From: Leucoraja erinacea
Taxonomy: Eukaryota
NCBI RefSeq assembly: GCF_028641065.1
Contig: NC_073409.1
Span: 12,276,001 to 12,340,000 of the forward strand
DNA: 64,000 nt
Reading direction: 5' to 3'
The position numbers and the translations under genes were made by a program. The notes under the pieces are model-generated. The model did no database searches and was not told the DNA's origin. It saw only the letters and a program-made list of their open reading frames with translations. The first letter of the stretch is position 1, and each line of letters begins with the position of its first letter. Positions 31,482 through 62,670 of the stretch are shown here, in pieces.

Positions 31482-31576
31482 ATCTGCAAACTGATGACGC
31501 AACTCTGAGTAGCAATTGTGAGGAAGCATTTTATTACAATACAGTGATTAACTGCAGTCAAGCACATTTCAGCTAA
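31482..31576 (+). CDS. ZWILCH: ZWILCH exon 18, last coding exon (DLQTDDATLSSNCEEAFYYNTVINCSQAHFS*)
   Basis: ttttgaag|; C-terminal CSQxHF motif; TAA at 31574-31576. Confidence 0.9.
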
Positions 31577-33150: not shown

Positions 33151-33263
33151 TCATTTTCTCCGAAGTAGGAACATCAGTAAAATAGCACTCAGGAGTATAC
33201 ATAGGGTGCACACGGTTGGAACTACAATCTCAGTCACCATCTCCATATGATTGATGAGAGGAT
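33151..33263 (-). CDS. LCTL: LCTL exon 13, last coding exon (DPLINHMEMVTEIVVPTVCTLCILLSAILLMFLLRRK*), TM anchor
   Basis: tttgacttag|; TGA at 33151-33153; minus-strand AATAAA candidates at 32799-32804, 32691-32696 and 32637-32642. Confidence 0.94.
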
Positions 33264-34924
33264 CTAAGTCAAAACAAAAAGACATGATGCAAATAATCCT
33301 TTAATTATTTGAGAAATAATTTGTTTGCACTATATCAAGTGAATTTATTTAATATGTGATAAAATTATTTTATCATGTGCCCATTCTTTAAATTTAAATA
33401 AAAACTAAAACATCTGTTACTGAGAATATTGACTGCAGTGTTATTGCTCAGCTAGTTTTTATGCAAGATCTCATAACTGAAGCATTAAATTCCTTTGAAG
33501 CACAAACTACAGATAGAGATACAACCTTGATAGGTTTACAGATTAGAAGTTTGAGCTTTTCCAGTAGTAATGTCATAGGAATATAGAAATTATATCTTGA
33601 AACCACTCAAAAGTATCTTTGATTATTTTCCTTTTAATGTATTTGGATTGTGCGTGTAAATTTCAGCAGAACATGAGAGGTACTGAGCTAATAACCTATT
33701 TGAATTAAAGCATCCTAAGCATGTTCCTTGCCATTTCTAATTCTCTGACTCGGGTCCATGTAACCAAATATCTTTGAGTCAATCATTTAAAGAGGTCAGC
33801 TACTCTCACATGTCTTCATTGCCTATTTTCTGGTTTTTTTCCTTGTCTAATCCTTGTTCCCCTTTTCAAGACCCGTACATGCTTTCTCAATTGCTCCCCA
33901 CTGAGCTTATTTATATCTTGCTGCCATGGGCGCCTGGACCCAGTTTATAGCCACCATCTGTTCTTTCTTTAAAAAAAAGCGACTCCCAGATTACGGCTCT
34001 GTTGCTTCATCAAGAACAACAAACCCAAGTCTTTCTATCATGGACATTTTAATCTTCTAATGGCACCCTCCTTGTCAGTCTTGTGGGTTTACTTTTCTCC
34101 TCTCCTGCATCTCCAACCAGGGTCTATACAACCTCATGTAATTCTCTGCCCATCATATTTATTCATTTTGTATGTGTTTATTGAAGTTTTTAGGGCTTGG
34201 AAGTAAATCTGGTCGGCTTCACTGTTTGTACAATATATAGCCCTTTCTGAAAACTTTATTCTAGCTGTATTTTTGGCACCTGTAGATTTGCTTTTCCGAC
34301 TCTACCCAGCAAGTTTTTCAGCTTTTTTCACTTTGCAGGTGGTGCTTTTGTGGTACTGAATCTGGTGTTGTCTGTATGGAGTTTACATGTACATCCCAAA
34401 GACATACCAGTAGGTTAATTGGCTCCTTTAAATTTCTCTTGTGTAGATTTAAGAGAAACAGAGGGAATTAGGGGGAGGGGAAGGGCGGATGATAATGGAC
34501 CTGTGAGAGAAAATATGAAGCAGGGAAATAAGTTTTTTGGGGAAGAATGGGTTTGCTTTGAGATGTGGCACAGATAAAATGTGCCAACTGGCTCCTGCTG
34601 TTATAATCCAGCAACCCAAGAATTTGAAAGTTGTCTGATATTGTGATTTTATAAACCAAACAACTCAACTAGCAGAAAACAAATCATTTTAGTTTAAAAC
34701 AATATAATATTTTAAATGGGAAAGCATTAAAATCAAAATGCCCAACTTTTCAAAATAATTACTCAACGTGATTATTTTAGAGAAATTGTAAATACGAAAG
34801 GACAAAGTAATCTCAACCTATTTTAGCCATGATTTGTAACCTAAAAGGCTAATGTGCACATCTTTCTTTGTTGCTTTCAAGACTTGATCTTGGCACTAAA
34901 AAAATGACATCAAGCCCTTTATAC

Positions 34925-34998
34925 CTAAACTTCATCATGCACTGGCCAAACTGTTGGCAAATGTGCCTGCTTCTCATTTGTTCCGTCTGTTCTTCCAG
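34925..34998 (-). CDS. LCTL: Candidate LCTL alternative cassette exon 12b (AGRTDGTNEKQAHLPTVWPVHDEV*), soluble isoform
   Basis: Two CTAAT branch-like motifs, polypyrimidine tract ttcttttctgtttgcgcttttcag|, phase matches exon 12, 24 open codons, then TAG|gtataa. Confidence 0.72.
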
Positions 34999-36606
34999 CT
35001 GAAAAGCGCAAACAGAAAAGAACCCATTAGCCCATTAGTGGACCTCCTATACCTTCCTGCAATTTTAAATATAGTAATGTCAGTGTCACTTTAAAAGTAC
35101 TATAGAAAATGGTGCATAGGTCAACCGAGTGTTTGTGGAAATTAGTAAATGTATGGAGAATATAACCTTGAGTGGTGCAACATGTTCTGTGGTGTGTGTG
35201 TTTAATAGTGTTAGGATTAGTAGAATTTATTTTTCAAAATATTAATTATTGATGTATGTATTGTCATGTTTATTTCAAGTAAAGTGTAATGGAATCAGAA
35301 GAATGCAGTTGTAAAACATAAGCCAGTATATTATTATGGAATCATTGGAATTTCAAAACATGAGTTTTTTTTAACAAAAATGCTTTTATGTAGGGGGAAA
35401 ATTTATTTTGAACCCCAGAAATCTTTATCTTAAAATTAACGTTCTTAAAAGCAGGTAGAGGTTGCTGCCTATTGTGATGTGTGCATTAGATTTTATGGTC
35501 CCTTTAAGGAGAAAAAAAAAACAATGGCCTTTCCTGTCCTAATGTGAACTGATTATAAAGTAACTGAAAACCAAAATGAAAAAGGCTACAGACAGCTGGG
35601 AAGTGAGTAACTTAAATAGTTCCATTTCTAATTGGTTGATGATGTCCGTTGTAACAAATTTCATTTATTCTCTGAATTTTTAATGAAATGGGATATGTTC
35701 CTTTTGTGAATGGGGTATCTTCATTTTGCAAATAGAGGAATGGTCTGATGTAGCTGCAAATTAAATCTTTCCATCTAGATAGTGGCATTGTTTCAATATT
35801 ATAGTTTGGTTTATGCTTTATTTGGAATTTGGAGTCAAAGCAATAGTTAATTCACTGCTGATAATTTGTAGAGAACTATGAAACATTTTGTTGACTGGAA
35901 TAGAGAAAGTGGTGACAATTTCTTAATACAGTCAATTTGTGAAGGTACGGAAACGTCTACTTGACCAAGGTAGCCATTTTGCTCATTCATAGTTACCCAA
36001 CTTTTCTGTTGCCTAGTACAAACCTTATTTTTGATCATTCAAGTCAGCTGATGTAGTCATTCATAACCTGTGAGTAAATCAAGCTTTGCCATGCTTCTGT
36101 TTCCCTGTCCACGTAATCTATATTTCAGGGTTATTCTGCAGATAATAACTTTTGTGTTACTTTTGCAATATTTTATAATTGGGAGGTTTTGCACTGAATT
36201 AATTGCTGTGTTTTCCCCCCCATTCTAACAAAAAATCTCAGACCTGAATCATTTACTATTTCTCTTCACACAGATGATGCTTGACTGTGTGTGTATTTCC
36301 AAGTATTTTCAGCTTTTAACTTGTAAAATTGTCCTTTAGTTTAGCTTAATGTGACCTTTTATGGGATGGTTAGAAAACACCGTATGTGATGCTGTGGATG
36401 GGATTGTACTGGAGAGAGTGCAGAGGAGATTCACCACAATGTTGCCCGATTATAGGATTCTAGCTATGGGGAGAGATTGGATAGGCTGGGCCCATTTTCC
36501 CTGGAGCACAGGAGGCTGTGGGTCAACTCGAAATAAATATATAAAAATAGAAGAAGCGTAGCAGGGTAGGTAGTGCAAAACTGTTTTTCCTATGGTAGGT
36601 GTATCA

Positions 36607-37090
36607 TAGAAACATAGAAATAAGGTGCAGGAGTAGGCCATATGGCCCATCGAGCCAGCACTGCCATTCATTGTGATCATCCAAAATCGGTACCCCGTAC
36701 CTGCTTTCTCCCCATATACCTTGATTCCATTAGCCCAAAGCGCTATATCAAACTCTCTTGAAAACATTCAGTGAATTGGCCCCCACTGCCTTCTGTGGCA
36801 GAGAATTCTACAGATTGACAACTCTCTGGCTGAAAGTTCTTCCTCATCTCAGTCCTAAATGGCCTACCCCTTATTCTTAAACAAAGACCCCTGGTTCTGG
36901 ACATCCCCAACATCAGGAACATTTTTGCTGCATCTGGCATGTCCAATCCCTTAAGAATTGTATTTGTTTCTATAACATTCCCTCTCATCCTTCTAAATTC
37001 CAGTGAATACAAGCCCAGTCGATCCATTCTTTCATCATATGTTAGTCCTGCCATCCCGGGAATTAACCTGATGAACCTACGCTGCACTTC
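36607..37090 (-). mobile_element. CR1 3' fragment nested inside an older + strand CR1 (~36365-37310)
   Basis: Direct repeat GTATCA at 36601-36606 and 37091-37096; the host element continues after the insert. Confidence 0.88.
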
Positions 37091-37726
37091 GTATCAAAAA
37101 CAAGGGCATAGGTTTCAGTTAAGAGGTAAGAGATTTAAAGAGGACCGTAGTGGATTTTTTTATTCCACAGAGTGACTGATATATGGAACGCCCTGCCAGA
37201 GGAGGGCGGTGTAATCAGATACATTCACTTTAAGAGGCATTTAGACAGACAGTTAAAAAGGCATGGCATGGAAGGTGTGGCCTTAATGCTGGAGATGTGG
37301 TCAGATGACCCCATTTCTGTGCTGTTTGACTCATACTCTGGCTAATGCATATTCCAAGGTATTTACAGCAGGCAATAATAGTGAGCTGCCACTGTCTGAT
37401 GCTAATCAAATAGAATGGATGGGCATTGTTACTGAATAACACTCCTTCCCATATTTTGATAAACACACACAACTGTTCTTTGTCGAACGGGGAGTGGGAG
37501 GGTGATTACTTGAGTTATATAAATAATTACATCACTTCTTTGTGTTCTGCAAAGAAGCAGAGGGACCTTTGTGTCCCATAAGGTGAAATATCATCAGCTA
37601 GGCAGCCCAGAAAAAAGACAATGGTATAATTACTACATTTGTGCTCTGGCTAGAGCAGACATTGATGGGCTTTGTTGCCTTGCTCCTAAATGTGCTTCTA
37701 ACGCCTTTGTGACGATGTTCACCTAC

Positions 37727-37790
37727 CTGCAGCAAGCAGTGCATTGGTGGTTGAGCACGTCTCAGCGGCCTTACGCAGCCAGTTTTCAAT
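37727..37790 (-). CDS. LCTL: LCTL exon 12 (IENWLRKAAETCSTTNALLAA)
   Basis: gggtag| ... G|gtaggt; 64 nt. Confidence 0.92.
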
Positions 37791-37904
37791 CTACCCAAAG
37801 AAAAGTGGAAAGTTTGTTTAATCACCATCATTTGGATAAAAACCAACATTCTGCTGCCGTGGGGAGGAAAAACAATGTTATGGTAAACAAAACATGGGAG
37901 GTGG

Positions 37905-38100
37905 CCAGTGGGGGAGGTCGGGAGGGAGAGTGGGGGTGTGGGATAGGGGGGAGGTGAGGAGTGGGGTACGGAGGGGAGAGAAGTTATGGAGGGAGGGAGT
38001 GAAGGTAGGGGAAAGGAGAGGGAGGGAGAGGTGAGGGATGAGGGGGAATGGAGGAGGATAGGTGTAGAAAGAGGGATGGGAGGTGAAGTTGGGGGAGGGT
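37905..38100 (+). repeat. G/A-rich low-complexity tract (G-quadruplex-prone)
   Basis: More than 15 runs of GGG or longer. Confidence 0.8.
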
Positions 38101-38262
38101 TGCCATGACTCGCGTCACAACGGGGATCCCTGGCGTCACAATGGGAATGGGTGAGTGGTGGAATATTGCGTTGGTGGAACGGGGCTCGACCGGTCTCACT
38201 TGGCCGAGTAATCACGGAAAGTGAGTATTATTGTTGTTAATTAAATAAACTGTGGTACTCAC

Positions 38263-38462
38263 TTCTCTCTGGTTGGGAAATCCATTGGAGCTGATCATCT
38301 TCCTGTAATATTGAACTGAAGCCTTGGGATACCTTCTCTTGTGTTTGGTTTTAAAATCAATGTAGTAAAGGCCAAATCTTTCTGAATACCCTTCATCCCA
38401 TTCAAAATTATCCAGCAGTGACCAGGATGTGTAACCCTTCACTTGAGCACCATCTTTCACAG
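38263..38462 (-). CDS. LCTL: LCTL exon 11 (AVKDGAQVKGYTSWSLLDNFEW...GFPNQRE)
   Basis: ttgcag| ... |gtgagt; 200 nt. Confidence 0.95.
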
Positions 38463-39683
38463 CTGCAATGTTTCAAAACCACATGTGATTATAAACACAA
38501 CGATTTGATATAGCATCAGGAAATGCTGGAAACTCATCATCATCTCATGAGTATTTGCATGAAGAAAAATTCAGATAATACATACATAGCAATGTTTCAG
38601 TCAGAAAAAAAGGTTTAGGTCCCAACCACTGTGAATTTTGTTTACTTTGGTTGAATGATACTAAAATAACTACAAATCATGTTTTTCTCAAAAAGGCTAT
38701 CAGGATTGATTGTTCTCAATTGCAGCATCTAAAAATATGAGCAGATGTTTATTTATTGATAAGAGATAAAGTAGCCATTTCTCCTATCTTTGTATCATCT
38801 CTCTCTGCCTATCGTAATCAAATCAGTTCTCTCCCCTGCTTTCTCTCCCTGACTGTCTTCTCCATCTTCACTCTTATGTTCCTTTTTCTCTCGCTGCCTT
38901 CCGTCATGCTCACCCTCGTTCTCTTTCTCTGTCTCATCGTTTTTTACTCTAGCTGCTGCATGGTGGATTTTGTTTGATTTTGTTGAACGATGTAGAGCAA
39001 ACACTGCTACCACCTGCCTCTCCACTGTCATGGCAAATTTGCCGTAAGAATAGAGCTTTAGTGGTCTGGGTCTGTATTGTCACGCAAGAATGAGAGGTGA
39101 TCTCATTGAAGTTTTGATAAAATACCTGTCAGCCTTGACAGCTGTATGCAGGTTAGTTCCACTTGCTGAGGAGTTTAATCGATTTCTGGATACAAAGGGA
39201 GTTGAGGGATAAGGAGATAGTGCAGGAAAACTATGCTGAGGGAGATCAGCTAAGATTATGAAAGGTTGAATGGACTACTACTCCTAATTCTTATGTTCCT
39301 CAACTTATTTAGAATCTGTATAATTTAAACAATTTTTTGCAACAAAATGTTCATAACAACATCCAAATATGCAAGATATATGGAGGCACTAGTACCAAAA
39401 TGTTAGATGATTTCTGTAATTAACACACTTTGAGGCTGCAGGAATATGCAATCGCCATGCGAACAGTACCCGAGATCAGGATTGGATCCAGGCTACTGAA
39501 GGTGTGATGTACTAATTGCTGCAACAACGTCCCTACTAACCTTCAGCAGACTAGAAAATTTCATTTAAAAACAAATTCACGTCTTCTAATTTTTGTTCAC
39601 TCCCATGGGGGAATAACAACCGCAATTAATTCATATTAATGTATTATCATGGAAAATGCCTTATTTAGATAATGAAGACCTAC

Positions 39684-39810
39684 CTTTAAGAATCTCATTA
39701 ACATAATTATTCATGTACTGTATTCGCCACTTATCACACAACTCAGTACACTGCCATTTCTCCGACACTCCATTTTCTGTCACATAGATCCTAGGGTTAC
39801 CATATCGACT
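39684..39810 (-). CDS. LCTL: LCTL exon 10 (SRYGNPRIYVTENGVSE...YVNEILK)
   Basis: tttcag| ... G|gtaggt; 127 nt; nucleophile Glu codon at 39775-39777. Confidence 0.95.
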
Positions 39811-41894
39811 CTGAAACAAATCAGAAAACAAAAGTGTTGCAAATCAAATATTTCATTCCCAAATTTCAAATTTATTGTTAGTCGAACTCATCCAGACTGA
39901 CTTTTTTATTTTAAAGCCAGGCTTGACAGAAAGCCGAACATGTCTTGCATTGTTGACCAATTGTAAATAAGCCAATTCTGCTGGAGTGAACTATTACATT
40001 GTGTATTGTTTTAAATGCGTGTGGTGATTTTTTTTTTGTACAAAGAGCTAGAGATTTCTGAACAAATGAAGTTGCTGTGTGCAAATTCCCACAACTATGT
40101 ATGGTATTTATGACTGGAAAGCAATTTGTTTGTTCAGCACCTTTGGATCGTAATTAGTGAGGAATCACAAAAAGTCGTTTTTCCAAATAATATGCAATTT
40201 ATGAGACCAACCTTTTTTTTTTTTTTTTCCAGATGCACTTATCGCAGGAGCTTACACATGCCCTTCACCTCAAATCTATGATAGCACAATTAAATGTCTG
40301 AAATGTCTCCCTGGAATTTTCTGTTATTTTTGCTGTTTATGTATTTCATGTTGTTCTGCTTCTTTTATTAAAAACATATTTTCTAAACTTCTATGTGATT
40401 TAAAAATGATGCTGGATATGGTGTTCATTTTCCAAAGCTTCAGTTAGAAGCCTGATTCTGAGTCTGTGTTATAGTCCCGGTACAAGTGTGGATAGATTGT
40501 CCACGGTTGTCACAGTGGCAGATGGATGAAGCTTCTTCAGCACCACGTCCCAATCTTGTGATCTTGACAACCCAAAAGATCTTGGAACAAAAGTGGCAAT
40601 GCTGGAAGAATTCAGCCAGTTAAGAAGCATCTGTGAAGTGAGAAATCAGTTAATGTTTTGGTTATGAAGGGTCTTCAACCTGAAGTATTAACTGGTTACT
40701 CTTTCCATAGATGCAGCTTGATTGGTTGAGTTCAACACCATTTCTGTTTTAAAATCAAACACTTCCGTCTGGTGGATGGAATCTAACTTTCCCTCCATCT
40801 TGAACCTGTTGCTATTCTTTTATTATCTTTGAGAATGTTAAAATGAAGGAACTGCCGCCTACCTAAAGTACTGAGGGAATACCTCCACCACTAGGACTAG
40901 AGTGGCACAGAGATAGATGACCACCATCTTCCTGGGCAACGGGATGACGTAAATTCTGGGTGAGGTGGTGAAACTTATTTTTTAAGAAGATTTTCAAAAC
41001 TAATGGTGCATTTGTTCTCGTACTTCCATAATGCAGCATGAACCCAACTGTAATAATAAGGGAATAAAATAGTTCAGGAATTGTGCTTTTTTGTTTGCCA
41101 TTCATATATACAGCTCACTAATTCCTTATCCACCTCTTCCTATTCCACCTCTTTTCTCTAACCTTGCAAATTATTCCTTACCATAAATATGCAGTACCGA
41201 AGACGATATAGACCTGCCTTGACCACATCTACAGATAATGCATTACAGATTCCAACCACGTTATGTACAAAAAAAAAATCCTCTTGTGCCTTCTATCTTA
41301 TTTTATGCCCATAACCTCTATTTCCCGGGGCCCTTCAACAGTGATACATCCTCCCACTATCAACTCTGTCCTGACCCTTCATCATTTTATATACTTTAAT
41401 CTTTTCAACTGGAAAGGGACAGTTGCAATTTCTCCAATCTTTCCTTGAATTCATAGAGCCTCACTCCTTGAAATATTCTCATCGATCTTTTCATGGTTCT
41501 TTTTAATGTCTTCACACCTTTCCTCCCAGGATAGGAATCTGAGATAGAGCTTGTTATAATCTTTCATTGTTAGATTTGTTTTATCGTTGTGCCCGGTGAA
41601 GGGAAGTATTTACTGGTGTTGCACTTTGCAGGAAGTTTCCATCCTATCTGAGCTCCTAACATTTAATGAGCCTTTCTCTGAAGGTGGTCTAATGCACCAT
41701 GGATCGACAATGCAAACTGGAGGCTGCAAAGCGTAGTTAGCAAACTGGTGCCAAGGAACAGATCGGAGTTAATAACATCTTTGGTGAGTGCTCACGCTGG
41801 CTTAGCAGGGCAGCAGTATTAATTCAGAGTAAAGTTATACAGTGCTGAACATATAATGGCCTACTGAATGTAGGTGTAAGGATATGAGCGTTTA

Positions 41895-42600
41895 TAAAGA
41901 AAGAACACATTTATGTAGCATATTTAATAACTCAAATACAGCTAATTAAATGTTTTCTGCCATGATGCAGAAAACAGTCCATTTGTGTGTTCTATGATCC
42001 CACTACCAGCAATCTGAGGAGGAGTTAAATTGGTTGAGAGATAAATATAGACCTGAAAACTGAGAGAACACTATTTTTGAAGTATTGCAATGGGGTTTCT
42101 TGTTTCTTCCTGGAGATGGGCTCTTGTGTCTCAACCAAATACCAGATCTGTTCTGATGTCACACCGCCTCAGAACCACACTGGTCGATTATGTTTTCAGG
42201 TTTTTGATGTTACACTTGGCCCACATAGAACACTGCCTAGTGGGTGAAGGTTGAATACTTGTGGCTTGAGGTTAACACTGCAAAACATTTTCGGACTTGT
42301 CTTTGGATCAGTCGACTGATTGTACATTCAACTCCCACTATAGAGTTTGAAGACCATTCAAGTAGAGTAGTGAGATGAGACATTAAACCAAGATGCCATC
42401 TGATTCTCTTGGGCAGAAGGTGTTCTCTCCGAGTCCTGGCCAAATGTTAACCCTCAGTAAAAGAGTAGATGGTGTAGTTATCATCAGATTGCTGTTTGTT
42501 GGACTTTCTGTGCACAAACTGATGGCAGGTTTGAGAAAGGAGGACTTTGGCCTATAGTATGTTTACAAGTCATGGGATCATTAAATAAATAAACGTAAAT
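41895..42600. mobile_element. Head-to-head pair of Deu-domain SINEs (SacSINE1/AmnSINE1-like); further copies at ~60660-60900 (-) and ~45360-45620 (+)
   Basis: GATGAGAC.TTAAACC, GTTCTC.CC..GTCCTGGCCAA, ATTGCTGTTTGT.GGA...CTGTGCACAAA on + (42240-42600), with the reverse complement at 41895-42230. Confidence 0.65.
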
Positions 42601-42660
42601 CATTTGTCATTACTTCAAAATGAGAAATTGAATTACACGTCACCGATTTGTAGTAAATAC

Positions 42661-42935
42661 CTTAATAAAATTCAGGATCCTTCTGAAACCCCAGGGTACT
42701 GAGTAAAGCCATTCAGATCCTGGGTCTGGCCACTGTGGGTCGACGAGTTCCACTAAATCACGATCAGTGTGATAATTTGGTCCCTTGCTGTAATGGTAAT
42801 TCTTGTGAGTGATGTAACGGGTCGTGAAGTGACCCAGTCCAAAAAAGTCTGCCGTGCCTTTGATGAAGTGTTTCTCCTGTGGAGTGAAGGCAGGCAGTCT
42901 TGAGTTGCCCAGGCCTTGCTGTGAACTTTTTCTCC
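42661..42935 (-). CDS. LCTL: LCTL exon 9 (GRKSSQQGLGNSRLP...WLYSVPWGFRRILNFIK)
   Basis: caacag| ... |gtattt; 275 nt. Confidence 0.95.
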
Positions 42936-43849
42936 CTGTTGATTGAGTAAACACCATGGTTATTTAGAATTAGTTCAAAGATTAGATATTCTGAACACTA
43001 CCATTGGCTCCAATGCTAAATTTTCCCAAGTCTTGAACTGGCCCCATTTTGTCCTGGATTTTATCTGTCATGTCATTGAATTGCGTTGTCTTCATAAAAA
43101 TAGTTTTACATTGCTCGGATTCAATAAAAATCTTTCACATTTTATTAAATGGAAAGAGTAGGAATGAATGCAATATAGGTTGCTGGAAATAATTCTGACC
43201 AGCAGAGTAGATAGTGGACAAGAAGAAAAACTGTTCTGTTGGCACCCTGTTGAATATATAACATGAAAATAATGTATACATGCATTTCTGATGTCATATA
43301 GGACAATGTATCTTTCCCAGGCAATGCGTCTGTGAATCCCTTCTATTTACCACTTTTGGATTTTTTCGCTTCCTGTTTAAAATTCTTTAACTGATGCTGT
43401 CCCAGGTGCTGTGACATCATGAGTTGCCATCCACTGTTCATGCATGTCGTTATGATATAATGAATCTCTGCCTTTGCCTGCCTAATATAAATCCAGGCTT
43501 AAATTGGATGGCATTTACATCCATACTGCGGTACTTCTGGGGTCACATTTTCCCACCTGGCCTACTGAAAGCAGCAGTGAAGAAGGGAAATTAAAGAACT
43601 GCAAAATTGGTGCCATTTTAAATTATATTAAGAAAACAAAATACATTCTGTAACATTTGCCTGGTTGCATTTTAGGCTGCTAAATAATCCATTGGAAAAT
43701 CAGGATTATATGCGTCTAAACAGATTCATTTGCTCTCTGTTTTTAGTTTTTGTTGTGTCGGGTTAAGTTGCTATATAGGCTTTGTGTGTGTATGCATCTG
43801 TGTGTGGAGTGTGCACTCACTTTATTCCATCCTATTATTTTATACTTAC

Positions 43850-44011
43850 CAATACAGTCTTTCATAACTTGAGGGTAGTCGCCATTGAAAATAGGGTTGG
43901 CAAACCAGCCAAGATTAAATTGGATGTATCGCTCAGCAGCCTCAATATCCTTCTGGCTTGTAATGTCAACTGGATCTCCCCACTCACTTGTGATGGAAAT
44001 ACCCACCATGC
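43850..44011 (-). CDS. LCTL: LCTL exon 8 (GMVGISITSEWGDPVD...GWFANPIFNGDYPQVMKDCI)
   Basis: attaaag| (weak acceptor) ... G|gtaagt; 162 nt. Confidence 0.92.
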
Positions 44012-45131
44012 CTTTAATATTAAAATAATGTTTAATAGGTACCACATGAATAGTCTTTTAAATTAGAATATATATGTTTCAGTTGTGATTTTTGAAAATC
44101 AAAATGGTTCCTGAGTTGAAGATCATCCACTATATTTGTTCTCTTTCTCCACTGGTCAAGATCTCTTGGCTTTGATATTTGCTATGTTTTGGACTAAACC
44201 ATGTACTATGTAGTCTCCTGGTCTGTCAACTTCTTGATTCACAGTATGCTCTTCAAGAATATGACACAGGTCACCGTTGAGGAAAAGATAGTAGATGTCT
44301 GAATTGATTTTGGTAAGCCATTTGATAAAGTCCCTCGTGTTAGGCCTCCAGATGTTTTAGGCTCAGTGATCCTGGCATTCATTCAGCATTGTTGCCATCC
44401 TTCAACCACAAGAGCCCTATGTTCTTAAGGACCTTCCCTGACTCTCTTTGCCTTTTATCTCATCTTTTGGACACTGCTTAAAACTGACTGAATTTAGCTA
44501 TTTTGAATATGAAACATTATAATGTGGTAATGTGCATTAAAAGACATAGCTTAGTTCTATTCACAACTTCTTTCTCCATAATCTAGCAAATAGTTTAATT
44601 ATCTGTAATTTCTCCATGTGTATGGTATTATTCTGCTTTTGCAACATTTCCAGGCAGTGTATAAATAACATGCATAAAATATCATACTATTATTTCTTAA
44701 GTACTTTTGCCAATTACCTTAAATCTGTGCTCTCTGGTTTCTGTTTCTTGTCCATGGGACGGTTGTTTTTTTAATTTAATCTATCAAACCCTTTCATCAA
44801 TATGAACCTCTTTAAAACCTCTCAACCACCAATTTAAAGGAGGTTAATCCCAATTTTGCATAACTCCACAGAACTGCTCAGTCATTAATACTCACTGAAA
44901 TATAACAAATTGTGCTGAATTTAGGCCTTTCTAATGACTAATGAGATTATTTGAATGGAGCTTGTCTCATAAATTCTACTTGAAACAGATGATACATCAC
45001 CCTATCACATCTATATAGCAGAAAGTAGTCAAATCATGCAGTATACTTTACGCTAGACATTCCAGTTCACTCCTGTGCTACTTATTTGTTATATGTTTGA
45101 GACTTGTTCCTTATTTTTGAGAACTCGATAC

Positions 45132-45186
45132 CTTTTTGGCGACTGCGCCAGAGTCTATCGTACGTGTGCCAAGTTGTCGCGTGGGC
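45132..45186 (-). CDS. LCTL: LCTL exon 7 (AHATTWHTYDRLWRSRQK)
   Basis: ttcacag| ... G|gtatcg; 55 nt. Confidence 0.92.
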
Positions 45187-45731
45187 CTGTGAAAGAGAAG
45201 TCAACACCAAGAGTGTTACTGAAATCATGGCTTCTACACATTTTCCTCCCCCACAACCTTAATTAAAATTTTCAGCTGTCTCGCCCACCAAAAGGACCAG
45301 AAAAAGAACCTTCCACCAAAACCGGACATCAGAATGTGGTGAGTAAGGCTTCTCCCATTGGTGACCCTCGACCTTGGTCATGGATTGAAGCCACATTGTG
45401 GGAACCCGCTTGACTGATGCCTTGGTGCACTACTGAGGCAGTGCTCCACTGCCAGATGTCCTGTACGTTATATGGCAGATACTATGAGGCTGAGCATGCA
45501 TGTGCTGCTCATGTCCTGGTATCAACCACTGGCAAAACTGATTAATTCCTCATGTCTAATGCATTTTGTTTTATGCAAATTGATTGGAGAATGCTACATG
45601 AGGACCTCGTCAGATCAGGAAAGATGCTGTCTGCAAGCAAGTAGAGCAAAACTGATGATCCACTATCTGTTTTCTCAGAAATCCTCATAGATTGGAATCC
45701 AGCTCACTTGGTTCTGTTGACTGTGCTCCTA

Positions 45732-45905
45732 TTTAACTCACTGGCCCCAATCCTACATTCCCACTGAACTCACCAGGGCCCCATTGTCCCATTCCCTTTA
45801 ATCTCATGAAGACGCTGTTCCCATACTGCCTTTAATCTCATGAGGACCCCATTCTTATACTTCTTTTAAACTCACCAGAGCTGCATTCCCACATCCCTCT
45901 AAACA
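45732..45905. repeat. Degenerate minisatellite, ~5 units of 33-34 bp
   Basis: tttaatctcatgaagacgctgttcccatactgcc / tttaatctcatgaggaccccattcttatacttct / tttaaactcaccagagctgcattcccacatccc. Confidence 0.7.
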
Positions 45906-46076
45906 CCTGACTCACTGGAAAGTTTATCATAAAGTGAATTAAAAGTTAGTTGGTATTTCAAAAGGAATAATAACATCTGCCAGTCTGGCACCACCAAAGT
46001 ACCAAGTGTGCTAGATTATCAGAATTTAGTGTTCTTTTATTTCATTGTTAAACAATTTTTTGATATAGAAACTTAC

Positions 46077-46172
46077 CCTAATAATGTTATGTGCTGCCCT
46101 GTAACCTCCTATTCCATTAAGCTTTAACCCTGGGGCATGCAGTCCAACCTCGTATCCTTCGACAGCTATGGA
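46077..46172 (-). CDS. LCTL: LCTL exon 6 (SIAVEGYEVGLHAPGLKLNGIGGYRAAHNIIR)
   Basis: ttgcag| ... |gtaagt; 96 nt. Confidence 0.95.
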
Positions 46173-46467
46173 CTGCAATATATAATACATAAGCATCAAT
46201 GATGGTAGTCTAAACATATCCCACTTATTCCACTGTGATCTAAAGCTCCTGAATTGTACTTAAATTTCCCACGATGGAGCTGCAACCATGTAGGCCAGCA
46301 CCAGGCCTTTTCCCAAACAGGATCTATCCATCTTCCTTGCTTGCAGTCATTCGAAATGAGTGGCAAAGAAATAAGCATTTGTACCAGTTATTAGCCTGGC
46401 GAGGGATATTTGTCAGGTTTAAAAGAAAAGTGTTGACAGCAGGATATCTTCAAAAAAATGATTGTGT

Positions 46468-46890
46468 CTGAGCTATAGGGAGAGGTTGAGTAGGCTGGGA
46501 TTCTATTCCTTGGGGAGCAGGAAGTTGAGGAGTGATCTTATAGAGGTATATAATCATGAGAGGAATAGATTGGGTAGATGCACAGTCTCTTACCCAGAAT
46601 AGGCGAATCAAGGACTGGAAGACATAGGATTAAGGTGAAAGGGAAGAGATTTAATCGGAAGCTGAGGGGCAACTTTCACATAAAGGGTGGTGGGTATATG
46701 GAACAAGCTGCCAGAGGAGGGAGTTGAGGCAGGGACTATCCCAACGTTTAAGAAGCAGTTAGGTACATGGATGGGACAGATTTGGAGCGATATGGACCAA
46801 ACATGGGCAGGTGGGACTAGTGTAGCTGGGACAGGTTGGGCAAGTTGGGCCAAAGGGCTTATTTCCACGTTGTATCACTCTATGACTCTG
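46468..46890 (+). mobile_element. CR1 LINE 3' fragment (third family; related fragments at ~13115-13305 and ~31960-32220 on -)
   Basis: VVGIWNKLPEE peptide; tail gtatcactctatgactc. Confidence 0.82.
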
Positions 46891-48034
46891 GGTTATAGAA
46901 TTCTCATGTGAGATTGAGAGGGAGATCAATAATGGTGGAGCTTGATTGGTGGGACGAATGGGTTAAACAAGAAATTGCCCAGGATAATCCTTCATATATT
47001 TGCCATCCAACACATGGGATCAATTGGTAATTAACCAATTACAGGCCACTGCCTGCGACGAGGACATTGCAATACAGATCATAAACAGTTTGTTGAATTG
47101 ACGAGAATTTTGCTTAATTCATTCTCAAAAAAATAATATTTGAGAACTAATTAATTTTAGATCCTATGGTTCAATTTTTATATTTTTAATTTTATTCTTA
47201 CTTATGCTTTCAATTAATAAATGAAACAGAATGGAAACACGGTGGAGAATAGTGTAAGACGGGCTTCAGCTGAATAATATAGAAAAGTAAAGTTGGAAAA
47301 AAATGGTCTCAAGTCATCATAATTAATATTTATTTTGAAACCATTTTCAATAATTTTAGTTGTTACTTTCAAATAGAATTCTGAACACATGGCAGCGCTC
47401 AGCATTTTGAATATGAAAGGTAGTTGCCATGTTTCCAAAACAAAGTATGTCACTGCACCTCAGCTGGGTGAAAAGGTACGATGTAAAAGCAAGTCTTCTC
47501 CCTGTTCCTTCTGGGAACAGTGTGGCCATTTTTGCAATGGGCTATCATGCTACCAAAGCATAGAGAACCAAGTCTTTAACATTAGATTGAAACTAGATAC
47601 AATAAGAATGGAGAAAAATGTTTAATCATACTAATGTGAGCTTTTTTTAAATGGGGAGAGTTCAGAGCCTATTTGCTTATAAACAAACAACTGAGAGCAT
47701 ATATACAATTGTGCAATGTGAAAGAGTTACATTGTTACAAATAAAATAACTCTAATCGTGTACATAGAACAGTACAGTTTGGCCCACAGTGTCAATGTTG
47801 TACATGATGATAAATTATACTAATCTGCTCTGCCTGTATATGTGATCCATATCCTTCCATTTGTGCATAGCCACATACTTATAGAAACGGCTTTACTTGC
47901 ACACCTTTTTAAGGAATGCTGGAGTCGAAATGTATCAGTGCTGAATAATTGGTGACTGATACCTCTCATCTCCAGCGTTACGTTCCACAAGTTAATGTTC
48001 AATTAATCAAACTCCATTATGACATAAAACGTAC

Positions 48035-48163
48035 CCAAGGATTGTTGAAAGTAATCCAATGTTTCACTCGGTCACCAAACTTCTCAAAACACAGGTTGGC
48101 ATAATCATTGAAGAAGTTAATCATACTACTGTTCTGCCAGCCACCATATTTATTTTGGAGGAC
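48035..48163 (-). CDS. LCTL: LCTL exon 5 ([11 protein letters not shown]...[15 protein letters not shown])
   Basis: tttttag| ... |gtacgt; 129 nt. Confidence 0.95.
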
Positions 48164-48363
48164 CTAAAAATAATAGAGATAAATATGAAATGAGAATCAA
48201 ATGCCATTTAATGCATTATAACTTCTCTTTCTAACACGCTGTAGTGCATACCAATTTCTAGTGGGCTAACATGACCTTAGATGAACAAACAAAACAAGCC
48301 AGTCATCAGACGTAAACAGATCAATTGGCGAAGGTATCTGCAGGAAGAGCATGGCTAACTGTA

Positions 48364-48800
48364 CAGTAAATCTTCGTTTTAACGGACCTCCTTAAAACGG
48401 ATTTTGGTTATAGCGGCGGACCCATCGACGGTTTCTAACATCACCACCGGCTTCACCGCCTCCAAGGCTGGGCTGCTTTCAGGTGCGTTGCCGACGCCAC
48501 CACCAGCCACTTCCAGGTCGGCCCACACAGTTTCCCTTGCCACTTCCAGGCTGGGCTGCCGACACCATCTACCTGGCCGCTTTTAGGCTGAGATGCCGAC
48601 ACCACCCCTGGCCCACACCGCCCTGCCCGGCAGCTTCCAGGCCAGATCTACTGCTGCCTCTGCCGGCCCACACAGCTCTCTAGACCCCTTTCAGGTCGTG
48701 CCTGCCGCCACCTACCCTTACCTGCACTCCAGCCGCCTGCAGGCCGGTACCAACGACTCCACCAATCTTCGCCTCTCCTTGGGCCAGCAGGCCCAGGCCA
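48364..48800. mobile_element. Tigger-like element left end with a GC-rich, internally repetitive body
   Basis: TA|CAGTAAATCTTCGTTTTAACGGAC terminus; no matching right TIR found. Confidence 0.5.
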
Positions 48801-50659
48801 TCAACTCACCTGGAACTGAGAGTCTGAAAAAGGGTCTCGACCCAAAACGTCACCTATCCATGTTCTCCAGAGATGCTGTCTGACCTGCTGAGTTACTCCA
48901 GCACTTGCAGTTGTTTGTTTCTGTCCAATATAATGATGGTTTATGGTACTTACATTAACAGGGCCAGGTGGCTGTACAGTAAAGGGAATCCACAGAAATT
49001 GGAAAAAATATTTTAATAACCCAGTATGCCCTAAGAGAACCATAAATGTACAGGCTGTGAAAAGAGATGGAGAGAGACGCCTTTGTTAAGATGAACACAG
49101 CTCTTTTCTGAACTCCTTTCCCAAGACAATGAAATTCTTGACAGTAATAAAAAGGACTCCAAGAAGGCTGGTTTCATTGCCAACTTCTTTGTAAATATGA
49201 AATAGTCAAAGGTATTGAGTCAAAATAAATATTGTTAGAGCATTTCAACAGAATTCATATCCGAACAGAGTGATTATAATCTCAATTCCTCTGTGTCTCG
49301 TGGGACCGTTTGTTCAAGTTACATATCAGTTCCAATAAACACCTGACGTAAAGGCAGTGCATTCAAAAGGAGAGAGCAGGTGGCGGGAATAGATTACATT
49401 TTGTATTTTTCAATCTTAAAATTAATTGTGACTATATGTTAAAGCTGAGTGTAGCCACGAGAATGTAATTCAAAATGTGGCATTGATGCAGTTTTAAATC
49501 AGGCAGCAAAGTTAGTCTGGTCTGAAATCCTGTTTGTTTACACTAAGGATGAGTTTAATGTGAAATTTAGTGTAATGTTAAAGGAGGAGTAACAATTAAA
49601 TCAGTTAATAACGGGCAGGGTTTTACCTTAAAAGACATTGCAGCCAGGGAAGGGTGACCTGATCAGTCATCAAACGTTATAGATCATTAGATTATCTGCA
49701 TGTTGACCCCAAATTGATAATGAGGACATGCTCCACTGATAGCACATAAGGATAGGGAGGGAGTTCATTATGTCAGCTGTTACATTGTTGCCACTGTCAA
49801 CCTCAGAGATGTTAAATCCTATATCACCGCAGAACTAGGAATCCTGATCTATTGTCATTATTAAATCTCTTAATAACACTTCTGCACAACCAAAGTAATC
49901 AAACCCCACTCAGATAGGTGGAGACACTAGTCCGACAGTAATCCAGGAACCTGTGTGTAACACAGCTGTACTAGAGCTAGAACGTCTTGTCCCTGGTCGT
50001 TCAGTCTGTGGTGGGAAGGGTAGTAGCAGAGTTGTTAAAGTTGGTCACAAGTACCCAAATCTGAAAAGGTAAAATAAAGCCAGACTTTTCACATACAGGG
50101 GGAAGTGCAGAAATTCAGATTTCCCATCTTGTGGAGAGGCGCATATATGCATTCTGATGTAAATGGACAAATGTATGCTCACAATCATATTGAATTTTTA
50201 AATGATTATTGAGATGGTCGTTTCTCCACTTTCCATTCCCTCCACCCCACCCTTGCAGATGTCCCTGCTGAGAAAGATTGTAATCATTTTGGGTTGCAAT
50301 GACAGAATTCAGTAGATTAAGACAGGATTGTAACATCACAGTATTCAGAGTGACACGACCACTTTCTCTAAAAGTATGGTCCTTAGGATGAACACAACAG
50401 TGCCCTCCTGCACAGGTTAGAATTAACCATGTGGGTGAAGCCTATGCTCTTTTATTTGTATTTATCTGTGGGATGTGGCTACTGTGTATAATTGTTGCCT
50501 TTTTGTGACTGTTATTCAGCTGAAGAGTCAGTGCTCATTTATTTGTTTGTTCTCACACTATAGACAAGGTTGGCTTTATTGTATCCTTGAAACTCTGCAG
50601 TCCCTTGACTGACACTGTACCAGTATATCCTAAATCACATTCAAACATTTGGTACAGAC

Positions 50660-50769
50660 CTGTGGAAGATCCCAGTGGTACAGGGTCACTATGGGCAGAA
50701 TTTGGCTCTCCTGGAGGGTGTTTATCAGTTCATTATAATAGTCGATTCCTTTGCCATTCACTTGCTCGG
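50660..50769 (-). CDS. LCTL: LCTL exon 4 ([16 protein letters not shown]...TLYHWDLPQ)
   Basis: ctccag| ... CAG|gtctgt; 110 nt. Confidence 0.93.
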
Positions 50770-50935
50770 CTGGAGAATTTTGAAAGATAAGAAATAGATT
50801 ATCTATAATGTACAAATTATTTGTAAATACAATCTTTGTTATACTCTACTGTAACTTTCCTACAGTGAGGACCTCCTCCCACAGTTATATCAAGACTCTT
50901 ATGTAGTGTGATAATACAGGTACTGCTAGGCTACT

Positions 50936-51152
50936 GAGAATCTGTGGAATTCTCCGCCACAGAAGGTAGTTGAGGCCAGTTCATTGGCTATATTTAAGAG
51001 GGAGTTAGATGTGGCTAAAGGGATCAGGGGGTATGGAGAGAAGGCAGGGAAGGGATACTGAGTTGGATGATCAGCCATGATCATATTGAATGGCGGTGCA
51101 GGCTCGAAGGGCCGAATGGCCTACTCCTGCACCTATTTTCTATGTTTCTATG
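50936..51152 (+). mobile_element. CR1 3' end (related short pieces at ~24366-24522 on - and ~57978-58162 on +)
   Basis: Matches 23465-23688 closely; TTTCTATG tail. Confidence 0.88.
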
Positions 51153-52784
51153 TACGTGGCAGTGCCGGAGATCAGATTTGGGAGTTGATGTGATGGGGAG
51201 GAAAGGTTGGGAGATGTCATTGCTCAGCAGGGAATTTTTAATACTGAGCTGGTATCCGAGTATCAGCAAGTTTGGCAATCATGGAGGTATACAGCTATTA
51301 ACTGACCTCACCCAGGATGATAGATTTATCCTCATAACTCAAAGCACAGAAACAGAGAGAGAAAACAACCTTAGTATAATCCTTAGTTACACTTCAGTAC
51401 CCATAAATTTGTACAAGGTTTGCCGAGAGTGGAAGGGTGTCAGCCAAGGTTAAAGTGGTGGGCATAACAGGCATTTTTTCCTAATAATAAAAAATAATTA
51501 TAGGAATAGTGGTTTTCAGTTCTGTCCGCCCCATTGCAGGAAGGATGTGTAGTGGGCGGGGGAGTCGGGGGAAACGTTTTCAATCTCTTACCTTGCCAGA
51601 GATGCGATTGTTTTCTGGATCGTATCTCCGGTCGCTCTGCAACCTAACATCGTGGAGCTGGAGGCCTTGCTCGGGACTGACTTTGAGCCCCTTGCCTGGG
51701 CTCGATGCTCCAACTGCGGCCTGCGGCCTTTAACATCAAGGAGCTTGCAGTCTCGGGTTGAGACCGACATCGGGAAGCTCCAAAAGCCGCAAGACGTTCG
51801 ACTAGCCCCAACCCATGGTAGATCACCCGGCGCGGGGGAGCTGAGATCCCCCCCCCCCGATGCATGAGCTTGATCGCCCCGACGAGGAGGCCAGCCGCCG
51901 GCTACAGGAGAAAGATCATCCCGTCAACGGAAGGCCCCCGACCCGTGGAGGACAAAGAAGTGAGAGATTGAACTTTTTTATCCTTCCATCAGTGAGGAAT
52001 GTGGAGGAGTCACTGTGGTGGATGTTCGTGTTAAAATGTATTTTGAGTGTTCTGTTGCTTTTTATTGGTATGACTGTATATTGCATGTATGTTGCACTGT
52101 AATTCCTCATATATGGTGCAAAACATACTTGGCTTATAAAGTATGATTATGATGCCATCCTGGTTCTTCAAGCCTGGTCTGTCACAGCTGTGGGGCAAAT
52201 GCACAGCTTCTTTCCCTTCCCTTACAGGGTGACTGAGGCCAAGTGTTTACTGAACAGCAAATGTTTAAAGGGGATTCCAAACCAAAAAGTGTGAATAGAG
52301 AGACGTCATATGTACTCATAGCTCAGGACTATGCCCTTTGGCCCATAAACTTTATGCCGAACATGACACCAATGTAAACCTCACATCTACCTACACATGG
52401 TTTATATCCCTCAGTTCCCTGTTCATGTCTCTATATGCCTTTTAATCATTGCTATTATATCTGATTTCCAAAATCTACACATCCTGCCTATAATGTGGCG
52501 ACCAGAAATGCAAACCAAAACTTTGATTTGTATTACAAAGTAAAAATACTTAATACCTGCTTAGTCCCAGAACTTGTACCCGGCCTGACACCTTTCCACT
52601 CTCTGTGCCAATCATGTGCAAATCTGTGGATGCTGAAGTGCAGCAAAAGATTATGCTAAAATTCATTTTCTCCCTGTGAACAAGGAGGGAATCTGCTCAC
52701 TTCTGACAGCATTAACATTAGCTTACTAGCATTCAGAGAAGGCCGACTCCCTACCTAGCAAGACAGTAAAGTGAGAGATGTTAC

Positions 52785-52872
52785 CTTTTATCCCCGTTGG
52801 TATGATTCGAGGCCAGGATATAGAAAAGCGATAATGATTGACTTTTAACTCCTTCAACAAGGCAATGTCCTC
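52785..52872 (-). CDS. LCTL: LCTL exon 3 (EDIALLKELKVNHYRFSISWPRIIPTGIK)
   Basis: ttacag| ... G|gtaaca; 88 nt. Confidence 0.95.
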
Positions 52873-53021
52873 CTGTAATAAAATCAGGTGTTAACCAGGC
52901 TTTGCATGCATGAGGAAAATTATGAAGTTACTGGGTCTAGAAGGTTTGCTGGACAGGCTGGGAATTATTTACCTGGAATATAGGAGCCAGAAGGATTATG
53001 TTATGGAGGTTTATAATATCA

Positions 53022-53165
53022 CTAGACCAAGTGGGACACGTTGGGTCCTTGTCACACTGGAGGGCTGGTCCCCGATCGCAATATTCCACCACTCACCCAT
53101 AGCCCCCAACTGTGCAGCCGCGGCTGACGGGTTGGCGTTGTGACGCCAAAGGTTTGGGATAAGGG
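53022..53165 (-). mobile_element. Helitron-like non-autonomous 3' end; related copy at ~38100-38209 (+)
   Basis: Minus strand: GGACCC-AAC-GTGTCC hairpin then CACTTGGT-CTAG|T; shares TGGGTGAGTGGTGGAATATTGCG with 38148-38170. Confidence 0.55.
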
Positions 53166-53417
53166 CCAGGTGCAGGCAGTTAGGTAATCCAAACAATGTA
53201 TTTTCACCAGAAATACTTGGCGACGGAGGATAGTTACATATAGAATTGCAAATCGAGTCACTTAGAAAAGTGGTCAATAGACCTGATTGACAGTGGGTGA
53301 TCCAATCACACCCATTCTGTCAGGAATTTCACCATATTCCACCTTAAACATTTCATTGCCTGCAAAATACCTTGGGATGTGAAAAACTCTAACACAACCC
53401 ATATTCTATGTTCTTAC

Positions 53418-53578
53418 CTTGAATTTATAATAGCTTTCACAGGATGAGTCCCCTGTTTCATTCAGGAATACTTTTCCTTTCTTATGCGTGAAAACATCCC
53501 AGATACTGAGACCTTTCCCATCTTGATTCCAGGCTCCTTCTGTCTGGTAGGCCGAACTGCCCACACCCCAGGAGAAAC
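53418..53578 (-). CDS. LCTL: LCTL exon 2 ([15 protein letters not shown]...SCESYYKFK)
   Basis: ttttag| ... |gtaaga; 161 nt; GH1 N-terminal signature. Confidence 0.95.
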
Positions 53579-55849
53579 CTAAAATCAGTAGAGTACTTAA
53601 ACACTGTGTTTCACGACAATATATTTGTGCATTGATTGGTACTTGGAAATATTCCAAATTGTTTCAAACTAAGATTAATTAAAGTTCGGTATTTTTCACA
53701 TTTCCATACAATGCAGGAGGCCATTCATCTGAATGAGCTTATGCTGGCTGTTAGTAAAATCCCATTATCCCACTTATTTCCCTTGTAATTATTATTTCTC
53801 ATACATTGCAGGACGTCTCTGTTCCGAGTCTATATGCCTGTGATGCTGCTGCAAGCAAGATTTTCATTGTACCTGGATCTCACCACACTTGTGCATGTGA
53901 CAATAAACGTGACTCGCCTTGAGATCTACCCTAATTCACCAGCCACCCACCTACACTTGGGACAACCTAGTATGACCAATAAACCCAACAACTCTTATGA
54001 GTTTCGGACATGGGAGAAAACTCAAGAGTACCCAGAGAAAAGCCACATTGTCACAGAGAGAACATGGAAATCGGAGCTAAGATCAGGATCAAACCCAGGT
54101 CACTGGAGATGTGAAGCAGCAGAACTGCCTGCTAAACCACTGTGTTGCTCATATATGCTGCAGCACAGAACGTTTAAAGATGGTACTGCATGACTTTCAG
54201 CTCTAAATACAAACTCTGAAGTGATTTTAGAAAATTGGTGTGGAGCTGATTGTGTCTGGTCCAGTACGAGACGAGAAACAGAACAACCATGCTGTCACAA
54301 GATCTGTAGCTGCACGGGACTGTTCATTAATTCGTATAGTCTGCCATGAACATAGTAAAACATCCAAGGCGTGTCACAAAAGGAGATGGCAAAGAGAGAA
54401 CCAAAAGTCAACCAACGAGTTGTGCTTTAAGGAGCATGAAAGGAGGAGAGGGAGGCAGAGAAGTTAGGGTTGGTGTCCAAGTAACTGACAGAGAGATTAA
54501 AATCGACATTGACTGGAAGGCTGTGAGAGTTGGGGGAACACAGAGATCATAGAGAGTTGTAGCACCAGAGTTTACAGGGATGGATTTCCACTCAGGGTGA
54601 GCAGGGGCAAAATCTTGGAGGAATTTGAAAGCAAAGTTGGAATTTTTAATATCAAGACCTTTATTTAACGTGAAGCCTACATAACTCCCACAGCACCGGA
54701 GGTGGAAGGAATGCAAATTAGACATATTTCTTAAAGAAAATAACATTTTGAGATTCTGCATGAATAATCTGAAAGGATGTACAGTGGAAAGCAAATGTCT
54801 TTGGACTTAATGTTTCCCAAGGGCTATGCTCACTCACACATAGGAGCACACAAGAACAAGAGAGGTTTCATAAAAAATCTTGGGAGGGTTAGACAGAAGG
54901 ACATGTCCATTGGTTGTGAAATCCACAATTAGAAATCATGCATTCATGCTATAATGTCATCTATTTGGGAGAGAGCCGAGTAGAGATTTATTTTGAATTC
55001 TCTGCAGCACCATATATGTGGTGCTTCGTCATTTGCATGTTTGAGGCTTAGATTAGGTAGTTTCTGAGGTTGTAATGAATTAATGGATATTGGAAAGTTA
55101 TTGTAAAGTTGAATTATTTTATGGAAGGGCGGGGAGACCATTCGTTTCAGTTCCTAAAGCTACGTATCATGGGGGCTTTATTCATTTCTAGCCTGGATTT
55201 GTTGTGGACTGATTAATAAATCGTCTGTGTATCAATTGATCATTGGGATAGTGGAAGATGAAGCAGTAGATCCTAGTCCTTGGTGCTGTAACAATTCCAA
55301 TATCCTAAAGTCTTTTCAGAATACTTGTTAGATTCAACCAATCAAGATTTTGAATATTTGTCTCTTTTTTTCACCTGGATCTTGATTTGTAAACTGAGAC
55401 GGTAAATGCACATACTGTTTCTTATGGGGACTGCCAATAATCTGTCACTACAGGGGCAACAGTCCTTCGTCATTGAAAACTCAATATGATGCATATAATC
55501 CAGCTTCTGGTAACAAACATTGGCCTGCTCTAAACTGGTAAGAATTCTGAAGCTATTGGACACAGAGAACATATCAATAGATCAGTTTATTCTTATATTG
55601 CGTAAAGTTAAGAAACTGTCCACAAATCTGGTATAATGAGAAGATTCCAGAACTGAGAAGGACCAATATTATTTTTCTTGATTATTCTTAAACTTTTAGA
55701 TCAGTGACCAGAAATGGACATTCTGTAACAATAGATTTGTTCTGACCATAAAAATCATGCCTTCACCATACAGCATCTTAAAAGTATTAACAGTAAATGA
55801 ATACATCGCTCTAGTTCCTAGCTCTACTTGGGCCCTTCAATGTACTTAC

Positions 55850-55970
55850 CAGCAGGGAAAGTCCCATAGTAGAAGGATCCGCCATGGTCTTTTGTCCAGT
55901 CAAAGTCCAGAGTCAGGCACAGAGGCAGCGCCAGCAGCAGCCCTCCATGCAGAACCAGGGGCTGCATCAT
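55850..55970 (-). CDS. LCTL: LCTL exon 1 (MMQPLVLHGGLLLALPLCLTLDFDWTKDHGGSFYYGTFPA)
   Basis: ATG with an in-frame upstream TGA; hydrophobic signal peptide; G|gtaagt; 121 nt. Confidence 0.92.
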
Positions 55971-61887: not shown

Positions 61888-62670
61888 CTGCAATCATAGC
61901 AAACTCACATTAACATGGACACATTCCTAAAGCTGTAGATAGCCACATTAACAATAACTTGCATTCATAATGCATTTTGAAAAATAGTGACATTGCTGGT
62001 CACATAAAGGTTAAATAAATCAAACATGTATAGAACACAGAAACTGAAAAGCTATTTAGCCCCTCAGGCCTCTATCAAAATTCAGTGTGGCCTGATGTTT
62101 TAAGACCAAATGCTGGAAGGTGTTTGGATTATTATTTTATGACTGACACAAATACTGGCTGAATGACTCATTCAATATTGTAAATTATTAAATATATTTA
62201 AATATAATCAAGCATTTTGGGGCTAAGAGAAGTCAATGGTTAGGCAGGGAGGTTAAGTTGAGGCCACAACCTGATAAATTATGATCTTAGTGAACCTGTA
62301 GGGCCTAATTGTATTATTAAATTTTCAGCTGCATTCTGACAAGACTCAGTACTTTGACTGGATCATGACCAATCTATTTAAGTGCCATTTTCCAGAAATA
62401 TCTCCACATCCCCAACTCCATCTTGGTTCTGAACAAATTCATGACAGAGTGTGCACTATGTAACAGGATAGGCCAGTAGAAACATCTTTCCTATGTACTT
62501 TTCTGCTATTTCTGGCTGGATTAATACATGAAGACATGGTAATTGTTTCTGTGCCATTTGCTTATACCATACCTAACCTGGAAATATTTGATTGAAAGGG
62601 ATTCCATCTCCTGGCATGGCACAGCACAAGAGGACAATCCACTAAACACAAACTTTCTTTGTGGATTTAC

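Follow-up and report, generated by a model that had tools for sequence, protein, structure and literature searches.

A stop-containing cassette exon in the last intron of skate LCTL and the conserved HDEV tail it encodes

Closest described systems

Of the Klothos, LCTL (KLPH, gamma-Klotho) is the one understood least, and it is generally regarded as a membrane protein. In the accessible parts of the respective papers, mouse KLPH/LCTL is described as a type I membrane glycoprotein required for lens sutures (PMC13168428), gamma-Klotho as transmembrane (PMC11928720), and zebrafish Lctla and Lctlb as detected in the lens (PMC12232379). The mouse protein is the same membrane protein as the one which, in the gene studied here, results from skipping of a late cassette exon, and the accessible text of PMC13168428 contains no match to “isoform”, “soluble”, “secreted” or “splic”. 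Predicted isoforms with the same exon and tail as the included form analysed below are present in RefSeq among fishes and frogs, i.e. in Amblyraja (XP_032906538.1, X2), Scyliorhinus canicula (XP_038668855.1, X2), Siniperca (XP_044049898.1, X3), Danio (XP_073762540.1, X6), Latimeria (XP_064422022.1) and Ascaphus (XP_075431493.1, X4). The initial annotation of this DNA had called the exon hidden, which is contradicted by these models of close relatives; they are, however, automatic models, silent on function, localisation and conservation. The open literature yielded no account of the isoform, of its conservation or of its absence from amniotes, nor any match to the tail strings. While annotated by databases, the isoform is apparently unstudied.

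The two LCTL forms had also been likened to soluble and membrane-bound alpha-Klotho. This analogy turns out to be a loose one. In both cases a Klotho-family ectodomain comes off its anchor, but LCTL makes use of a late cassette exon which is positioned to escape nonsense-mediated mRNA decay (NMD) and adds a conserved tail, whereas an alternative alpha-Klotho mRNA is reportedly called an NMD target in the title of a paper. Soluble alpha-Klotho arises mostly by shedding (see PMC4608225). Soluble receptor forms made by splicing are common as a kind.

Junction-dependent NMD, on which poison exons rely, acts on stop codons located more than 50 to 55 nt upstream of the last exon junction. With such NMD-coupled cassette exons the LCTL cassette shares a stop codon within an alternative exon as well as conservation at the nucleotide level. 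Its TAG, however, directly adjoins the last junction (0 nt), and by contig depth in one sample the included form is not depleted but about as abundant as the skipped one. A classical poison exon is therefore rejected, and the escape from junction-dependent NMD which the initial annotation had put forward is borne out as far as this sample goes.

Gene model, transcripts and predicted products

The window, by which we mean the whole stretch of 64,000 nucleotides of Leucoraja erinacea DNA analysed here, harbours LCTL on its minus strand (Table 1). A gene model of 13 exons, all of whose introns carry AG/GT ends, yields 566 amino acids without the cassette and 553 amino acids with it, reproducing the isoform lengths given previously. 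Over its full length the skipped form shows 0 differences from Leucoraja erinacea XP_055517325.1, which identifies the gene as the LCTL orthologue, while the included form differs from Amblyraja radiata XP_032906538.1 at 2 positions. Re-reading of the sequence recovers the motifs, the in-phase exon and the stop with its adjoining donor just as they had been described. On the minus strand the CTAAT motifs start at 35038 and 35030, the CAG ends at 34999, and 86% of the 22-nt tract from 35022 to 35001 consists of pyrimidines. A stretch of 141 bases has a single match in the species' own genome, and RNA folding of 34890-35050 reveals no unusual structure (z -0.46).

Table 1. Positions of LCTL features in the window, with strand and supporting evidence or remarks
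Feature	Position	Strand	Evidence or remark
LCTL (KLPH, gamma-Klotho) coding span	33151..55970	-	13 constitutive exons plus cassette
Exon 12, constitutive, 5' of the cassette	37727..37790	-	Phase-1 donor common to both forms; RNA joints at both ends
Two CTAAT motifs, branch-point-like (candidate)	35026..35038	-	Some 29 and 37 nt 5' of the acceptor; sequence only
Polypyrimidine tract and CAG acceptor, weak score	34999..35022	-	RNA joint 37727>34998
Cassette exon of 74 nt: 24 codons with WPVHDEV at the end, then TAG	34925..34998	-	Sequence, RNA joints, conservation
TGCATG hexamer overlapping the V-H-D codons	34936..34941	-	Sole occurrence in the 4.46-kb last intron
TAG stop followed by GTATAA donor, weak score	34919..34927	-	RNA joint 34925>33263
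Last exon, coding part: TM helix and short basic tail	33151..33263	-	Turns into 3' UTR on cassette inclusion

Scored by a matrix derived from the splice sites of the gene itself, the cassette acceptor ranks 22nd among the 283 AGs and the donor 25th among the 190 GTs of the last intron, and both score under all 12 constitutive sites, the scores of which are inflated by this self-training. By themselves the splice signals are within chance and no proof of an exon. What raises the cassette above chance are the RNA joints and its conservation, and on these grounds the cassette exon is real.

Four of 24 listed sequencing runs, none of them catalogued as RNA, were compared with positions 31500-40000. 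Runs X1 and X2, which derive from one sample of a related species (tissue unspecified; one mismatch in 200 bases of exon 11 and about 5% divergence in the 3' UTR) and which we take as RNA because of their spliced joints, contain contigs with the two inclusion joints predicted by the initial annotation, 37727>34998 and 34925>33263, at the exact bases and at depths of 17.3 and 14.5. The skipping joint 37727>33263 is present in the contigs of the same runs at depths of 18.3 and 15.8. All three joints carry canonical ends (CT..AC on the plus strand) and are accompanied by two constitutive upstream joints. From contig depth, which is a poor gauge of level, the fraction of inclusion in this single sample amounts to roughly 0.48. 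Run X3, probably DNA, shows no cassette joint, and X12, a run of raw reads from another species, contains 1 skipping read and 0 inclusion reads at an exon depth below 1. One contig is unbroken from 33265 to 31500, and down to 31500 no joint occurs within the last exon.

In X1 and X2 the intron 3' of the cassette (33264-34924) is covered at a depth of about 6-9, compared to 0-2 over the intron on its 5' side, and AATAAA is found within the former at 34260, 34182, 34163 and 33349. This weak signal, which stems from reads of another species, may reflect intron retention or usage of the cassette as last exon; the encoded protein would be the same either way.

As had been proposed, inclusion of the cassette leads to the loss of the transmembrane helix: beyond residue 30 the best 19-residue hydropathy value is 2.63 in the skipped form but 0.51 in the included one. 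The hydrophobic N-terminus is kept in the latter (1.88 at residues 5-23) and, by hydropathy only, resembles a signal peptide. Both TFNNP at 198 and VTENG at 409 belong to a single GH1 barrel, in accordance with PF00232 on homologues. The acid/base glutamate is absent, being replaced by the N in TFNNP, while the nucleophile motif is intact, a combination typical of LCTL. Since the acid/base glutamate is missing, a role as hydrolase is, from what is known of the family, unlikely. An AlphaFold2 model of the Amblyraja isoform displays a mean pLDDT of 88.9 for the barrel and values below 50 for residues 537-553, so that the tail is predicted to be a free, flexible, linear C-terminus. In the two supplementary files covered of the zebrafish lens proteome (PMC12232379), lctla and lctlb are listed as protein groups and HDEV has 0 matches.

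Taken together, we give an even chance to LCTL being switched between a membrane and a soluble state, with the stop-containing cassette giving rise to a secreted or weakly held gamma-Klotho beside the anchored form. Skipping of the cassette would result in type I membrane LCTL, while inclusion would exchange the product of the transmembrane exon for a flexible tail of 24 residues. Because its stop adjoins the last junction the mRNA should survive, being presumably stable and translated, and the product, which would retain its signal peptide together with the complete GH1 barrel, would enter the secretory pathway. Beside the anchored form the free ectodomain may act as a decoy or as a ligand, probably in the lens.

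Conservation of the tail and of its nucleotides

Of the 502 proteins fetched, which include about 150 distant relatives from GH1, a terminal W..HDEV is found in 29, exclusively in the form of WPVHDEV or WPLHDEV; the initial annotation had named an ending like the former for teleosts, and teleost models do contain it. Looked for in LCTL of jawed vertebrates, as had been proposed, the tail turns up in protein models of sharks, teleosts, coelacanth and frogs, but in none of the amniote models covered. The tail is present in 7 of the 31 chondrichthyan models (skate, stingrays, manta, catsharks and smooth-hound), in 18 teleost-type models representing both paralogues, lctla and lctlb, in one of two coelacanth models and in 4/15 amphibian models (Ascaphus, Rhinophrynus), one of which is a read-through model. 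It is found in 0/2 lungfish models and in 0/115 amniote models. The latter are protein models from clusters of 40, 46, 365, 141 and 78 with only 15 listed members, and suggest a loss of the cassette in amniotes. The coelacanth tail as sole query matched only itself (one of two candidates; too few shared words), and no invertebrate relative ending in HDEV is present among the 150 listed in a library at 50% identity. This apparent absence from amniotes and the constraint on nucleotides described below extend beyond what had been noted before.

All 18 distinct tails share W, P, H, D, E and V, 17 of them have A at -13 and 14 have P at -10, while the 5' half of the exon drifts. The exon comprises 65, 74 or 77 nt, all differences being multiples of three, although this conservation of frame is partly built in as the tails were chosen by their ending. 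Coelacanth and frogs carry a V-to-L change (WPLHDEV) which is compatible with retention of the TGCATG hexamer.

TGCATG is an RBFOX-type motif. Its expected frequency is 0.013 per 74 nt, and it is observed once in the cassette. In mis-framed database translations, which follow the +1 frame of the cassette, the middle base of a codon corresponds to the true wobble base; the reads were picked by means of a wobble-free pattern. Three of four teleost reads, Etheostoma and Takifugu among them, equal the skate at 7/7 wobble bases of the last codons and have TGCATG intact, while the fourth, teleost-type read (P0120) differs at two sites and disrupts both TGCATG and H-D. By the same measure exon 12 shows 67/142 wobble matches in 11 reads. 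Within one contig, 7/7 matches in the cassette stand against 7/13 in exon 12 (one-sided Fisher p 0.044), the reads being few and non-independent. As far as these translated sequences tell, the 3' end of the exon looks fixed at the RNA level. Our best reading is that of a regulated splice switch which is at least 450 million years old.

Such constraint on nucleotides is what would be expected if the cassette served as an RNA-level rheostat, a conserved element diverting about half of the transcripts, with the peptide as a by-product and the protein degraded or inert. Besides the wobble matches, the hexamer's position across V-H-D and its possible retention in WPLHDEV agree with this, as does the likeness of the intron tract and of the exon 5' end among the shifted-frame reads. 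Yet, unlike that of a poison exon, the stop is outside the reach of junction-dependent NMD, exon lengths differ by multiples of three (with the selection bias mentioned), and the conservation includes A at -13 and P at -10. In addition, the donor of the Ascaphus model P0479 lies 4 nt further upstream, so that its last valine would be encoded by GTG, with the base changed and the residue kept. All in all, we consider an exon acting mainly through its RNA unlikely. Under the membrane-versus-soluble switch the last eight codons may be dual-coded, specifying a peptide as well as a splicing element, with TGCATG near a weak donor tuning the ratio of the two forms by tissue.

P0479, the Ascaphus truei isoform X1 model, with its donor 4 nt above the stop, reads past HDEV and then runs, in another frame, across the spacer and transmembrane exons, which settles the order of the exons: HDEV, spacer, TM. 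The spacer is a second alternative exon that adds 15 residues in frame before the transmembrane helix in teleosts, paddlefish, bowfin, frogs and turtles (homologues P0021, P0044, P0179, P0410 and P0474), and occurs in 6/115 amniote, 3/15 amphibian and 0/31 chondrichthyan models. A possible decayed relic of it is located at the corresponding place in the skate, at 33451-33410 on the minus strand, following an AG and interrupted by a stop as well as a frame shift; its score is attained by 10 of 500 shuffles.

The terminal HDEV

The included form was suggested by the initial annotation to be either secreted or retrieved to the ER by the KDEL receptor. With KDEL/HDEL signals the LCTL tail shares H-D-E at -4 to -2 and its position at the free, extreme C-terminus of a protein which bears a signal peptide and lacks a transmembrane helix. 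It differs in its last residue, which is V in 29/29 tails instead of L, F, M or I. A tuned signal of this kind could render the soluble form a resident of the ER lumen, lectin- or chaperone-like, which would be freed upon receptor saturation or ER stress. The invariance of H-D-E, as in HDEL, and the disordered free terminus are compatible with this, one distant GH1 relative ends in KTEL (P0209), and membrane KLPH is said to have been placed in the ER by Ito in 2002. In the accessible part of PMC8248988, HDEL is reported to bind 10-fold better than KDEL by virtue of its His at -4, for which reason some retrieval by HDEV may remain. A review, in the passage available, ranks in vitro KDEL > HDEL > DDEL > HDEV (PMC12328878), which counts HDEV among the binders, if weak ones; HDEV has 0 matches in the available main text of PMC2140024, a source cited by that review.

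The last residue argues against ER residency. In a scan of the full set of KDEX reporters the last position prefers L and F, M less so, and I still gives more than 20% ER localisation, while V is not named among these residues in the accessible text (PMC2140024). HDEA is retained less well than HDEL (PMC7617889, accessible part), and His at -4 hence does not fully compensate for a poor last residue. Moreover, L, F and I, which make better signals, are one base change away from GTT, yet none of them occurs among the 29 tails. W at -7 and P at -6 are conserved as well, and for -6 the receptor structures, in the portion of PMC8248988 available, show no contact. Since the terminal V fails the tested last-residue rule, a canonical HDEL signal is rejected and retrieval by the KDEL receptor is doubtful. 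We do not assign HDEV as a KDEL-type signal, although weak, tuned retrieval is possible; residence of the soluble form in the ER by means of a working signal we judge to be unlikely. For the membrane-versus-soluble switch this would mean that HDEV is at most a poor ligand of the KDEL receptor, and therefore most of the protein should exit the ER.

Instead of the KDEL receptor, the tail could address another partner such as a PDZ-type or other C-terminus-binding domain which requires the terminal V. The invariant W-P upstream and the disorder of the tail would suit such a binder, and the class III PDZ consensus, a terminal V with D two residues before it, fits the LCTL tail. Yet the tail is predicted not to be exposed to the cytosol: with a signal peptide and no transmembrane helix it should be lumenal or extracellular, away from most PDZ proteins, which makes this explanation very unlikely. 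Functionless splicing noise or an exonised repeat, to which the weak splice-site scores might point, is hardly credible in view of the near-equal depths of the joints, the conservation from shark to frog and in both teleost paralogues, and the single genomic copy, and we reject artefact and exonised repeat on the RNA joints, the conservation and that single copy.

A bolder version, which we regard as unlikely, would combine these elements. Jawed vertebrates would ancestrally have possessed a soluble gamma-Klotho, tuned by RBFOX, whose WPxHDEV would be a deliberately weak KDEL-receptor ligand or a new C-terminal sorting motif mediating conditional secretion. Aquatic lineages would have maintained it over at least 450 million years, in both teleost copies too, and amniotes would have lost it. 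If true, a natural valine-ended signal would join the ER-retrieval code, and a lost secreted factor of the Klotho family would be tied to the aquatic lens. Should about half of the fish and frog transcripts encode a form which lacks the anchor and ends in the invariant tail, studies of zebrafish and frog lctl concern two proteins, of which the free one could be removed separately through deletion of one exon. The tail furthermore lends itself as a natural test of whether ER retrieval works with a terminal valine, and at the presumably dual-coded end of the exon constraint on the protein could be weighed against that on the RNA. These considerations have a limited reach since mechanisms of this kind are common, databases already contain the isoform and it was not seen in mammals.

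In Lctl records of Mus and Peromyscus (P0498, P0499, P0500 and P0502) the transmembrane helix is lost by another route, as they continue beyond the donor of exon 12 and end in an unrelated tail; anchor-less Lctl may thus exist in rodents as well. Upstream of LCTL, on the same strand, an exon at 62521-62805 (minus strand) presumably belongs to a gene resembling SNAPC5, and two teleost models (P0055 and P0062) fuse PF15497 to LCTL, which fits a shared SNAPC5-LCTL gene order. Just below the LCTL 3' UTR, 29674-30424 on the minus strand comprises what we take to be Tc1/mariner-like transposase fragments, and the 3' UTR contig of the related species extends about 1.9 kb past 31500, to approximately these fragments.
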